From NCBI GenBank assembly GCA_027593235.1, contig JAQCIU010000007.1, positions 1 through 64,000 of the forward strand: a DNA stretch of 64,000 nucleotides, in the 5' to 3' direction. Origin of the DNA: Chloroflexota bacterium (GTDB lineage Bacteria > Chloroflexota > Dehalococcoidia > UBA2979). Positions 44,501 to 47,500 of the stretch are shown in pieces. The position numbers are program-made. Positions within the stretch are counted from its first letter, which is position 1; each line of letters starts with the position of its first letter.

Positions 44501-47500
44501 AAGAGGAACGGCTCCAACAGCGGCAGCGCGATGTCCGGATCCTCGACCGACTGCAGCCACTCCACGGGCGAATCGTTGCCGTCCGGGATCAGCGCGAAGC
44601 GGCGAAGCTGCTCGAACCCACCCAGTGGTGGCTCGAACGCAAACGATGCGCGGGCGGTACCGCGCGGATCTGCTCCGCGACTTCGTGCTCATGCTGGGAT
44701 CGCTTGAGCTCCCGGATGAGGGGATGCTGACGCCGTTGCACCCCCCGTTGGAGGCTGCAAAACCCGCGTTCCGGTCGCCGACCATCTAGCGACGATCGGC
44801 TTGCGGCGCGCTGTCAGGCGACAGCAGGGTCGATCATGTACGGCGGCGGGGCCGCACATGTCCACGGAACTGCGTCGACGACGTTCCTTCGCCCGGGAAC
44901 CGATCCCGAGCCCCAAAGAACCGCCGAGGGTTGAACCCTAGAGGCGCAGCTTGCCGTGCGAGGGCTGACGGCGGCGCTGCTTGCCGGCCATCAAACGCTC
45001 TTCTTCTTCAATGTCCTTGGGGTCACAGCGCTCGCTGTCGTGGACAAAGCCACAAGCGATGCAGGTGCCGAACTTCCCGTACCAGTCGTCCTCGATAAGC
45101 ATGAGGCCGCGGCAACGCGGGCAGTTCTTTGGCGGGGCGCTTGAAATCATGGCCCGCACTCCTCTGTCTGTCGTGCGTCCGGCGTCCCGCCGGCTGGGCC
45201 TGAATCGTCTGCTTCCGGGGTTAGCTGACGGGTTCGGGTCGGTCCAGGTTGACCCGTCCTCCCATTGGAGGATTCACCCCTAGGATTGGTTCCCCCGGTC
45301 TCGACTGTCCTGGCGGGCAGCCGAGATTCAGCAGAGCGCTTACGCGCCATAGCACAATTACAAGCGGAATCCGTTCGTGATTGTGCTAACAAGAGCATAC
45401 CCCGGCGCCTCGTCATGTCAAGGTTCGGTAAATGGCGTTTACGCACAGTCTCATCACGGCTGATCGACCGCTGCTTCGATAGGATTAGCCCCTGAATCCC
45501 GCTTGCAGCCGGCGAAAGGTCGCCCCGTGTCCGCCCTTCCCGATCCTCGCACGGTCATCCACGACACCGTCACTCGCATCGCTCCGGTCAGCGACCTAGC
45601 CGCGGAAACGGCGCGCGCACGCCACGGTCAGCTCACCAAACCGCCCGGATCGCTGGGCCGACTGGAGGATCTGGCGGTGCGGATCGCGGCGATCCGCGAC
45701 GAACCGCGCCCGCGGCTGGATCGGCGATTGATCGTCGTGGCGGCGGCGGATCATGGCGTGACCGCACGCGGGGTCTCCGCCTACCCGGCGGAGGTAACGG
45801 CGCAGATGGTGGCGAATTTCCTGGCTGGCGGCGCGGCGATCAACGTGCTGGCCGATCACGCGGGAGCGCGCGTGCGTGTGGTGGACGCAGGCGTCGCAAC
45901 CGACACCGGCGACCACCCGGCGCTGGAGACACTGCGACTGGGTCGCGGCACCGCCGATATCACCGCGGGGCCAGCGATGCCGCAAGCGGTGGCGGAACGC
46001 GCGCTGGCCGCCGGGATCGCCATCGTCGAGGACGAACTGGACGCCCGAGGCCTGAACCTCGTGGGGTGTGGGGAGATGGGGATCGGCAACACGACCGCGG
46101 CGGCGGCGATCGTCGCGGCGGTGAGCGGACGACCGCCGATCGCGGTGACCGGGCGCGGGACGGGCATCGACGACGCGACCCACGCGCGCAAGGTGGAGGC
46201 GATCGAAACGGCGTTACGGGTAAATCACCCGGATCCGCTGGACGGTGTGGACCTCCTCGCGAAGATCGGCGGCTTCGAGATCGGGCTGCTGGCGGGCGTT
46301 TATCTCGGCGCGGCCGCGCGGCGGGTGCCGGCGATCGTCGACGGCCTGATCTCGGGGGCGGCCGCGCTGATCGCGGTTGCGATCGAGCCACGGGTGCGCG
46401 ACTACCTGATCGCGTCGCACCGCTCGGTCGAGCCGGGGCACACGGCGACGCTAGAAATACTGGGGCTCGACCCGCTGCTGGAGCTGGACCTGCGGCTCGG
46501 CGAGGGCACTGGCGCGGCGTTGGGGATGACGATCTGTGTCGCCGCCTGCCGCGTGCTGGACGAGATGGCCACGTTCGCGGAGGCCGGCGTCTCCGACTCC
46601 GACACGGTGATCGAACCGGAAGGATGAACGCGATCGGGCGCGTGCTGAGCGGCGCGCCGATCGCCCTCGAATTCCTCACCCCGCTGCGGCTCCGCGCGGT
46701 GCAGCGTCATGACGACCGCGTGTTCGCGGAGGCGGTCGGCTGGTACCCGGCGGTCGGCCTGCTGATCGGCTGCGGGCTGCTCGCGCTGGACCGAGGGCTC
46801 TCCGAACTGCTCCCGCCGGCGCCGACCGCCGCGCTGCTGATTGCGGCGCTGGCGCTCGTTTCGGGCGGGCTCCACCTCGACGGCGTCGCCGACACGGCCG
46901 ACGGTCTGGCGGTACAGGGCGACCGCGAGCGCCGGCTCGCGGTCATGCGCGACAGCACGACAGGGCCGGCCGGCGTGATGGCGCTGGTGTTGGTGCTGTT
47001 GGTCGGCTGGTCCGCGCTCGCCGCGCTGGAGGATCCGTTCCGGTCCGGTGCGCTGGTGCTTGCGCCGGCCCTCGGACGGTGGGCGGTGATCCCGGTTGCC
47101 GCGACCTTCACCCCGGCACGCGCGGGCGGCCTGGGCCAGACGATCCACCGCGGTATCTGGCCGTTCGCCGGGCCATTCGGCACGCTGACAGTCAGCGCGG
47201 CTGCCGTCGCGCTGTTCGGCCTCGGCGGGCTCGTGCTGGTGCTGATCGCGGGCGTTGCCGCGTTGATCGTCGCGGCTGCGGCGGCGCGGCTGCTACGCGG
47301 CGTGAGCGGCGACATCTTTGGCGCGTGCATCGAGGTGGCGCAGGTGGTGAGCTGGCTCGCGATCCTCGCGGCGGCGCAGCGCGACTGGATCGACGCGGCG
47401 CTGCTGGGCTAGGGCGGCTCGAGGGAAGAGGCAGGGCGGCAATGGGCCAGATCACATTCGTCACCGGTGGCGCGCGCAGCGGGAAGAGCGCCTTCGCAGA

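Follow-up and report, generated by a model that had tools for sequence, protein, structure and literature searches.

The window analysed here, a 64,000-nt stretch of DNA from a Chloroflexota bacterium of the class Dehalococcoidia (assembly GCA_027593235.1, contig JAQCIU010000007.1), carries a c-di-AMP riboswitch whose first downstream gene encodes a 70-aa zinc-ribbon protein. The features of this locus and the second riboswitch match all lie on the minus strand:

45394..45421, minus strand: sigma-70-type promoter-like site, TTGACA-16-TATGCT, with 10 of 12 consensus matches
45352..45386, minus strand: 5′ leader hairpin GCACAAT...ATTGTGC, a helix in the MFE fold, holding a conserved (T/G)CACAA box just after the −10
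45195..45343, minus strand: c-di-AMP riboswitch aptamer (RF00379, ydaO type), 82.3 bits over the full model
45179..45193, minus strand: conserved expression-platform hairpin CCGGCGGGACGCCGG, from RNAalifold on 20 window-like leaders
45147..45206, minus strand: predicted sequestering helix, GAUUCAGGCCC (45196–45206) paired with GGGCCAUGA (45147–45155), from single-sequence folds
44938..45150, minus strand: gene for the 70-aa protein, with a C4 zinc ribbon, an acidic helix (residues 44–55) and the invariant tail KQRRRQPSHGKLRL; stop codon at 44938–44940
34811..34941, minus strand: second RF00379 match, preceding an MFS_3 transporter gene

In a covariance-model scan the aptamer lies far above the gathering score of 38 (E 1.3e-17), and all positions of the model, 1–134 of 134, are aligned, making this a whole aptamer. 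Promoter-like site (45421–45394), aptamer (45343–45195) and start codon (ATG at 45150) stand in this order on the same strand, which places the aptamer in a 5′ leader, and it ends 44 nt before the ATG. The survey's finding had given the same aptamer coordinates, bit score, reading frame and spacing, and had called this one of two c-di-AMP riboswitches in the genome; all of this was reproduced, the match at 34811–34941 being the only other one in an assembly of 3.39 Mb (78 contigs, 89.66% complete). RF00379 riboswitches are found upstream of Bacillus subtilis kimA/ydaO and ktrAB and of actinobacterial rpfA, and the usual genes under c-di-AMP riboswitches are those for transporters and cell-wall enzymes. 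Like the ydaO/yuaA riboswitches, the aptamer scores highly over the whole model and sits in the leader of the first gene, and its relatives have terminator-type OFF platforms and other targets of an osmotic kind (an MFS transporter, trehalose synthesis). Unlike them, it has as its target a 70-aa zinc-ribbon protein, which is neither a transporter nor a cell-wall enzyme; the gene is a new target in a known type of c-di-AMP riboswitch regulon. The nearby targets of osmotic character are the MFS transporter of the window and, in another genome (G069), an OtsA–OtsB trehalose synthase. The ydaO/yuaA c-di-AMP riboswitch class, Rfam RF00379, is described in PMC7266159.

The promoter-like site is the only one found, against 0.1 ± 0.4 in shuffled sequences, and 109 of 110 distinct upstream regions of orthologues also have a TTGAC-type site. 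Together with the Shine–Dalgarno sequence GAGGAG, 8 nt 5′ of the ATG at 45150, it confirms the promoter-like site and ribosome-binding site noted earlier. In 89 of the 110 regions, and in 9 of 10 upstream regions that have no riboswitch, the (T/G)CACAA box is no more than 22 nt from the −10. Within the source genome it accompanies one of 65 promoter-like sites, the one at the 70-aa gene, and a whole-genome search for the TCACAA box and palindromes gave no second convincing site. The box may be an operator or part of a 5′ stem-loop. RNA-library contigs from four runs, belonging to four studies, map to ORF and aptamer alike, and one of them (45121–45362) bridges both, as had been reported. They all fall inside 44997–45364, the uncovered rest not being read as absence, and this span is compatible with a transcript beginning after the −10 at 45394, the predicted start being near 45387. 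The locus would form a single short transcription unit, made up of a strong sigma-70-type promoter, the 5′ hairpin, the aptamer, a 44-nt platform and the 70-aa gene.

Of 90 distinct leaders, 17, drawn from at least seven families, have a terminator hairpin with a U tract in the stretch that separates aptamer from gene. A terminator in this position is the classical OFF design of the RF00379 class, and because leaders of sister lineages carry it, we infer OFF logic for the gene in the window: binding of c-di-AMP would switch the gene off, and the protein would be made at low c-di-AMP, a state tied to potassium shortage and osmotic upshift. The lineage of the window differs from terminator-type ydaO/yuaA leaders in that it has no terminator and its start codon is apparently sequestered. 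As in the earlier analysis of this leader, no terminator-like site was found on the minus strand between 44500 and 45600. Instead, GAUUCAGGCCC, just 3′ of the aptamer's closing helix, is predicted to pair with GGGCCAUGA, which includes the start codon, and the resulting helix encloses the Shine–Dalgarno sequence (45159–45164). In the fold predicted from the window sequence only, the last two bases of the AUG, U and G, are unpaired with probabilities of 0.06 and 0.02, and 14.8 kcal/mol would be needed to open the stretch from the Shine–Dalgarno sequence to the AUG. Since this predicted helix buries the AUG, control in the window's lineage is probably translational, through start-codon sequestration. 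Over the 20 window-like platforms, RNAalifold recovered a single helix, the hairpin at 45179..45193 (five pairs, two with changes on both sides); the sequestering helix showed no covariation there, nor did the window's leader yield a competing ligand-free structure. The aptamer would work through an intrinsic terminator in sister lineages, and in the window's lineage the 3′ arm of that terminator would have been relocated beside the start codon.

Selection acts on the protein itself. Its 14-residue tail, [K/R]QRRRQPSHGKLRL, is identical in 110 of 110 distinct DNA versions while all synonymous codons are in use, which establishes the ORF as a real gene. The zinc-ligand cysteines C10, C13, C30 and C33 are likewise invariant, with the tail, across 33 aligned homologues, in agreement with what the survey had seen. 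Its description of the predicted structure also stands: the AF2 model (pLDDT 76.9) has two CxxC knuckles and three strands (16–22, 25–30 and 36–41) forming a ribbon, then the helix at 44–55 and a low-confidence tail. Searches located the gene at 406 loci in species genomes and 452 in metagenomes, and the homologues fall into 95 clusters; among viral contigs no relatives were found. Some apparently longer homologues are gene calls running through the riboswitch, not fusions. The best Pfam match, to Zn_Ribbon_TF (PF08271), reaches 19.4 bits (E 7.6e-4) against a cut-off of 29, with a precomputed match to the same family in 7 of the 95 clusters, and nothing in NCBIfam comes close to a cut-off. Neither the literature nor Pfam and NCBIfam yielded a family name or a paper for the protein, so that the earlier statement that it belongs to no described family holds. 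The accompanying statement that its homologues are all unnamed holds except for five of the 95 clusters, which have automatic COG-type names (RNA polymerase subunit M/TFIIS, TFIIB).

We next consider how widely gene and riboswitch occur together. In a class sample of 151 Dehalococcoidia genomes, 56 with RF00379 and 60 with a DAC cyclase, our profile matches 86 genomes (67 had been counted before), of which 43 hold the full-length protein. The aptamer lies directly upstream of the gene in 33 of these 43 and is absent, meaning no RF00379 at E ≤ 0.1 within 1.5 kb, in 10. The latter include all six genomes of one family (f23), in which promoter and invariant tail are nevertheless retained. Tandem TGTGC-N6-TTCACAA boxes may have taken the aptamer's place. 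Among the 15 sampled families with the protein, 13 show the pair, and of the 173 copies of RF00379 in the class sample 33 precede the 70-aa gene, which is the single most frequent c-di-AMP riboswitch target there. Outside the class sample, Rfam finds an aptamer upstream on the same strand at 35 of 40 scanned metagenome loci and at 20 of 20 loci drawn from the 80 nearest species genomes, where the survey had reported the aptamer. For its best 30 loci our count is 27 with an aptamer, not 28. The pairing is therefore strongly conserved, as the survey proposed, though with a protein found in 43 of 151 genomes it is not class-wide, and to call the gene a constant target in Dehalococcoidia overstates the case, given the 10 protein-bearing genomes without an aptamer. 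It recurs in most, not all, Dehalococcoidia that use c-di-AMP.

The gene is confined to genomes with c-di-AMP signalling. All 43 protein-bearing genomes have RF00379 and a DAC cyclase, and the protein is found in none of the 95 class genomes without the riboswitch and none of the 91 without a DAC cyclase, counts that are drawn from related genomes and so overstate independence. Seventeen DAC-positive genomes do not have the gene. Because 10 of 43 genomes carry it without the aptamer, control by c-di-AMP is not essential to what the protein does.

The signals that bear on the protein's role are weak. In its C4 ligands, its CPxC...CxxCG spacing and its three strands it is like the N-terminal ribbons of RPB9, RPC10 and TFS (PF02150) and the B-ribbon of TFIIB and TFB (PF08271), which dock on RNA polymerase. 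These are also its best, though weak, sequence matches in PDB (RPC10, E 0.003; RpoM, 0.004; TFIIB, 0.006) and in Pfam (Zn_Ribbon_TF and Zn_ribbon_RPB9, both below cut-off), and it stands nearest to RPB9/TFIIB-type ribbons, all scores being below cut-offs. Unlike them, it is bacterial and scores under every curated cut-off, it has no second ribbon or cyclin domain, and its invariant basic tail is unique to it; structural Z values are only 2–3.4. A Foldseek search of PDB with the model gave nothing at E ≤ 1e-3, and the best VIA-align Z, 3.4, is to generic ribbons. The top structural neighbours are small stand-alone zinc-ribbon proteins of bacteria such as ZifS/TTHA0897 (PDB 8yoz; Foldseek E 0.13, VIA Z 3.4) and the ribbon modules of MqsA (VIA Z 3.1) and NrdR, none of them significant; they resemble the protein in size and in having a helix behind the ribbon, and the invariant tail is not common to them. 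When searched against PDB sequences, the 21-aa tail had no match at E ≤ 10. In ESM Atlas the protein falls with clusters named only 'hypothetical protein', and the nearest named ones (a Com-type ribbon and Zn_Ribbon_TF) score 0.88–0.89, under the tool's lead level.

Zinc ribbons have partners of many kinds. The reading that we favour, tentatively, is that the protein is a small zinc-ribbon regulator directed at nucleic acid or RNA polymerase, made as c-di-AMP falls, with the aptamer acting as an OFF switch and control being translational in this lineage. A stand-alone ribbon of the RPB9/TFS/TFIIB kind would be followed by the acidic helix and then by the arginine-rich tail, which would dock on nucleic acid or RNA polymerase as its universally conserved target. 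The c-di-AMP response would thereby extend past the genes that have riboswitches of their own.

Relatives from candidate-phyla bacteria bear on this reading. In these, ribbon and tail form the C-terminus of proteins of 190–736 aa, behind a conserved N-terminal domain that is modelled with pLDDT above 90 and carries its own NPW...LTIL motif. This domain resembles sigma-factor region 4 and LuxR-type helix-turn-helix domains, with every match under reliable thresholds. In VIA-align, region 4 accounts for 11 of the 13 rows with Z ≥ 5.1, at Z 5.1–5.9 over about 55 residues; many region 4 chains align at Z 5.0–5.9, a range that the tool calls unreliable. Pfam Sigma70_r4 matches the fused relatives at E 0.029 and 0.042, under its cut-off, and a NarL-type helix-turn-helix matches at E 0.11; Foldseek against PDB gave nothing at E ≤ 1e-3 for a fused form, and ESM Atlas returned 0.80 for its N-terminal domain, an uninformative level. 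Unlike sigma factors, the fused forms have no sigma region 2. It is conceivable, if doubtful, that ribbon plus tail is a portable module that docks on RNA polymerase or promoter DNA in bacteria, where it would be the counterpart of the TFIIB/TFS ribbon. In candidate phyla its fusion to DNA-binding domains like sigma region 4 would give transcription factors in one piece, and in Dehalococcoidia it would be free, its amount set directly by c-di-AMP.

The protein could, in a reading that we judge unlikely, have as its target some other protein involved in c-di-AMP or osmotic homeostasis, with the tail as a docking peptide; it might feed back on the CdaA cyclase or on a phosphodiesterase, control a transporter of potassium or osmolytes, or be a connector for the two-component system whose genes often lie downstream. 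Such a role would suit a gene confined to genomes that have both DAC and riboswitch (43 of 43, compared with 0 of 91 lacking DAC and 0 of 95 lacking the riboswitch), and a product made at low c-di-AMP suits feedback. It would also be in keeping with the receiver-domain gene found on the same strand, at most 3 kb downstream, at 44 of 80 near loci, with an orthologous OmpR-type regulator downstream at 15 of 80. However, the downstream genes are inconstant, the 17 DAC-positive genomes manage without the gene, and the fusion of ribbon and tail to helix-turn-helix-like domains in candidate phyla fits a transcription role better. A predicted complex of the protein with the cytosolic portion of CdaA from the same genome scored 0.00, which is no answer and is evidence neither way.

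Still more improbable, in our estimate, is a small protein that binds the ribosome or RNA and tunes translation at low c-di-AMP. Several small ribosomal proteins combine a zinc ribbon with an extended arginine-rich tail, and a basic invariant tail would suit an RNA target that hardly changes. The ribosomal zinc-ribbon proteins eL43, eS31 and S27ae are weak neighbours (E 0.06–0.9), and the bL32 of this genome is of the type without cysteines. Against this, the genome already has bL32 and bL34, the tail resembles neither better than shuffled sequences do, no ribosomal Pfam family matches, and the fusions to helix-turn-helix-like domains again point away. The tail as a bL32 or bL34 mimic was tried as a candidate and rejected, its Smith–Waterman score being reached by 627 of 2000 shuffles for bL32 and 1218 of 2000 for bL34.

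We give very little weight to the idea that the riboswitch serves downstream operon genes, the small ORF being a passenger or an upstream coupling ORF. No terminator was found behind the ORF in the window, and a gene of about 100 aa follows 46–340 nt downstream on the same strand at 47 of 117 loci. Pfam assigns this neighbour to no family and the window's genome has no homologue of it, which makes it no obligate partner, and the downstream gene varies by lineage, whereas the first ORF after the aptamer is always the 70-aa gene, a constant element under strong protein-level selection that keeps its own promoter where the aptamer is missing. In the window, fliW–csrA lies downstream, with 372 nt between the 70-aa gene and a truncated fliW. 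That the ORF is a chance frame and the aptamer alone functional, a concern in high-GC DNA with its many spurious frames, is refuted by the cysteines and tail that stay invariant through synonymous codon variation, and runs against the 95 homologue clusters at hundreds of loci, the well-spaced Shine–Dalgarno sequence and the confident AF2 ribbon.

The most frequent target of the c-di-AMP riboswitch in this class is a tiny, unstudied protein that is present only alongside c-di-AMP signalling, and its tail, invariant over hundreds of genomes, offers a clean handle for pull-downs aimed at finding its target. A shift from terminator to probable start-codon sequestration inside one orthologous leader would be a compact example of expression-platform evolution. 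If the transcription reading is true, the protein would be the first transcription-machinery factor under a c-di-AMP riboswitch, and the c-di-AMP regulon of a mostly uncultured class would have two tiers. As a regulator, it would make the c-di-AMP response of these abundant marine, sediment and aquifer bacteria wider than the riboswitch map.

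The survey's finding of an RF00379 aptamer (the c-di-AMP, ydaO-type riboswitch) ahead of a 70-aa reading frame was borne out, with an aptamer match of 82.3 bits and an ATG at 45150. As RF00379 members go, the RNA is unexceptional; it is one of two matches in the genome (3.39 Mb, 89.66% complete). The features of the window are as follows.

45421-45394 (-): promoter-like site TTGACA-16-TATGCT (10 of 12 matches; 1 site versus 0.1 ± 0.4 in shuffles)
45386-45352 (-): 35-nt hairpin of the folded leader
45343-45195 (-): RF00379 aptamer (gathering score 38, E 1.3e-17, model positions 1-134 of 134)
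Aptamer to ATG (-): 44-nt spacer with a GAGGAG Shine-Dalgarno sequence
ATG to stop codon at 44938-44940 (-): 70-codon frame, the zinc-ribbon gene
44251-44565 (-): fliW homologue, missing roughly its first 28 profile positions
43951-44184 (-): csrA, intact, after fliW
45503-48002 (+): cobT-cobS-cobU cobalamin-salvage genes, divergent from the promoter of the frame
34811-34941 (-): second RF00379 match, upstream of an MFS_3-type transporter gene

Judged by its conservation, the 70-codon frame is a real gene. A word-indexed search returned 95 homologue clusters of 38-123 aa, and scans of one genome per species and of metagenomes found at least 406 and at least 452 encoding loci, respectively. In an alignment of 33 sequences, 48-86% identical to the window's protein, cysteines C10, C13, C30 and C33 and tail residues R59, P63, S64, H65, G66, R69 and L70 are invariant. 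The C-terminal 14 residues are [K/R]QRRRQPSHGKLRL in 110 of 110 distinct DNA versions compared, with all synonyms in use for the Arg, Pro, Ser, Gly and Leu codons of the tail. Fixed residues combined with varying synonymous codons mean purifying selection on the protein and not on an RNA or DNA element. The AlphaFold2 model built from the 33-sequence alignment consists of a three-stranded ribbon (16-22, 25-30 and 36-41), a helix (44-55) and a tail modelled at low confidence (mean pLDDT 76.9).

The survey had described this gene as a constant, class-wide target of the riboswitch; the pairing proved real and well conserved, whereas neither 'constant' nor 'class-wide' held. At Rfam gathering score, the aptamer lies upstream on the same strand in all 20 loci sampled at even intervals among the nearest 80 species genomes, with 40-75 nt between its end and the gene, and in 35 of the 40 metagenome loci scanned out of 80. 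The class sample of 151 genomes was searched with both the protein profile and RF00379. Profile matches are bimodal: 43 genomes have one full-length match (profile 1-70, E ≤ 7e-30), followed by a gap down to E 4e-14 and then by weaker matches spanning the ribbon alone. RF00379 is listed directly upstream of the gene in 28 of these 43 carriers, and a permissive Rfam scan of the loci added five, giving 33. The remaining ten (G019, G022, G060, G065, G082, G084, G103, G121, G138 and G143) lack RF00379 within 1.5 kb of the gene at a threshold of E ≤ 0.1, and the tail is unchanged in all of them; six are every sampled genome of one family, f23. About a quarter of carriers have thus lost the aptamer or had it replaced. 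The pair is present in 13 of the 15 gene-bearing families. Among the c-di-AMP users of the class, the gene is the commonest riboswitch target, with 33 of 173 sampled riboswitch copies before it, and in four genomes (G038, G062, G092 and G126) the riboswitch before it is the sole RF00379 copy.

Of the 151 genomes, 56 have RF00379 and 60 the c-di-AMP cyclase domain (DAC, PF02457). All 43 carriers have both, and the 95 genomes lacking the riboswitch and the 91 lacking DAC are all devoid of the gene. These counts overstate independence, since the sampled genomes are akin to one another. The gene therefore characterises the c-di-AMP-using members of the class and not the class as a whole. Only 3 of 301 genomes of a phylum-wide sample matched at E ≤ 1e-18, all in Dehalococcoidia, and the viral contigs searched held no relative. 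RF00379 copies at L120 (G002:C266), L121 (G123:C14) and L122 (G105:C71) are also followed directly by zinc-ribbon paralogues of 60-76 aa that have no tail; G123 and G105 have both paralogue and canonical gene, each with its own riboswitch.

The promoter region has a signature of its own. A (T/G)CACAA box follows the -10 element by 7-13 nt in 89 of 110 orthologous upstream regions, riboswitch present or absent, but at only 1 of 65 promoter-like sites of the window's own genome. In the window it occupies 45381-45386 (-), inside the hairpin at 45352-45386 (-); in the window's family the box folds into a 5′ hairpin with a stem that varies in sequence among genomes, and the aptamer-less family f23 has two tandem TGTGC-N6-TTCACAA copies. 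The box was also noted at L091, L106, L107, L113, L115-L119, L134, L141 and L156, and may be either an operator or an RNA stem-loop. At the riboswitch-less loci L134, L141, L156 and L091 the same promoter is still followed by some 250-300 nt of leader that no Rfam family matches at gathering score. That of L091 contains, by eye, aptamer-like fragments (GGGUGAAUC and CCCGAACCCG), and L141 and L156 share one leader of another kind. Decay of an aptamer could account for such leaders, or they may be a structured RNA of some other type.

In other families an intrinsic terminator, the usual OFF design, stands between aptamer and gene. A simple scan placed one there in 17 of 90 distinct leaders; those of L089, L093, L101, L109 and L111 have a GC-rich hairpin followed by six or seven U. 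No U tract is present in the leaders of the window or its near relatives, which conserve a hairpin, CCGGCGGGAUGCCGG, at 45193-45179 (-), the sole helix that RNAalifold recovers from 20 window-like leaders. In the predicted fold of the window, GGCCC, the would-be 5′ arm of a terminator stem, pairs with GGGCC immediately 5′ of the AUG, enclosing the Shine-Dalgarno sequence; RNAalifold detected no covariation for this helix in the 20 leaders. In the ensemble, unpaired probabilities at the start codon are 0.06 for U and 0.02 for G, opening the start region would cost 14.8 kcal/mol, and no clear ligand-free alternative fold emerged for this leader. From these models, we infer that repression in the window's lineage would be translational. 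Contigs of RNA libraries from four studies, one run of each (45015-45165, 45193-45343, 45121-45362, 44997-45189 and 45194-45364) are confined to 44997-45364 within the 1.1 kb examined. They would fit a short transcript that begins downstream of the -10 element, although as assembled contigs with possible DNA carry-over they cannot prove transcription or transcript ends.

The protein belongs to no described family, as the survey had stated. Its best Pfam match, Zn_Ribbon_TF, reaches 19.4 bits against a cut-off of 29, and an NCBIfam scan gave nothing. A profile search of PDB sequences ranked RPC10 (E 0.003), archaeal RpoM (0.004) and the TFIIB ribbon (0.006) ahead of LysW and ribosomal ribbons, and fold searches of the model returned generic ribbons only (ZifS, MqsA, TFIIB and NrdR; best Foldseek E 0.13, VIA-align Z 3.4).

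Longer relatives add a second domain. An exhaustive profile search of 1.84 billion representatives gave 1864 proteins at E ≤ 1e-3, of which 97 reach E ≤ 1e-10. Among them, proteins of 190-736 aa bear the ribbon and a recognisable tail at the C terminus; where a source organism is named, it is Candidatus Woykebacteria, or the record bears the label Nanoarchaeia or uncultured archaeon. Not every 'longer' homologue is a fusion: several others are gene calls, or matches by tblastn, that extend across the aptamer. The N-terminal parts of the fused forms share a domain with the motif NPW.L....LTIL.L...G....EIA..L, modelled at pLDDT > 90. In structural alignment this domain comes closest to sigma-factor region 4, which takes 11 of the 13 VIA-align rows at Z ≥ 5.1 (about 55 residues aligned), with weak Pfam Sigma70_r4 matches (E 0.03-0.04) and a NarL-type helix-turn-helix match (E 0.11). 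Locus L128, 1537-3217 (+), has two tandem genes, each with an NPW-motif helix-turn-helix-like domain and a zinc ribbon, the second alone with the tail RRRQPSHGKMRL; an MFS transporter gene lies just upstream, and an Rfam scan of the locus found no riboswitch. Together, the weak ribbon matches and the sigma-region-4-like domain of the fused forms point weakly to a role directed at nucleic acid or RNA polymerase.

A role through a protein partner in c-di-AMP or osmotic homeostasis also fits, given the strict co-occurrence with DAC and the response-regulator gene downstream in 44 of 80 loci (an orthologous OmpR-type regulator in 15 of 80). Ribosome binding was an idea from the tail's presumed likeness to bL32 and bL34; compared with the genome's own bL32 and bL34 the tail does no better than shuffles, 627 and 1218 of 2000 of which, respectively, reach its score, and we rejected the tail as a mimic of these proteins. 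The genome's bL32 (L127, G000:C73) has no cysteines and is a zinc-free form. A downstream operon is an unlikely true target of the riboswitch, because the gene after the frame varies between loci: a conserved gene of about 100 aa without a Pfam family follows on the same strand, at a distance of 46-340 nt, in 47 of 117 loci (several families; among L003-L082), and has no homologue in the window's genome, where fliW-csrA takes its place.

The window's fliW frame extends 41 codons upstream without a start codon before reaching a stop; with its incomplete 5′ end, it may therefore be truncated or use an unusual start. On the divergent side, where the window has cobT-cobS-cobU, a cobalamin riboswitch (RF00174) lies divergently upstream in 5 of 20 and 2 of 15 related loci (L008, L040, L044, L047, L078, L085 and L086), with none at gathering score in the window. 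At L113 (G065:C150) the zinc-ribbon gene is without a c-di-AMP aptamer, and an AdoCbl riboswitch (RF01482, 59.5 bits; 1281-1426 (-)) adjoins it immediately downstream on the same strand.

Reviews assign to the RF00379 regulon transporters of potassium and amino acids, together with genes for cell-wall remodelling and osmotic shock (PMC7266159; PMC3766115). Another c-di-AMP riboswitch, in a sister genome (L210, G069:C1:1727879-1730100), precedes a fused trehalose-6-phosphate synthase/phosphatase (Glyco_transf_20 and Trehalose_PPase domains), a target that fits an osmotic regulon. Full-text literature searches returned nothing joining the c-di-AMP riboswitch with a zinc ribbon or with Dehalococcoidia, and the excerpts retrieved for the riboswitch and a small protein held nothing on this gene, which supplementary regulon tables might list as a hypothetical protein. 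The riboswitch-gene pair is real and well conserved and the gene is a new, unnamed member of the c-di-AMP regulon, whose invariant tail and fused forms offer concrete starting points for experiments on function.
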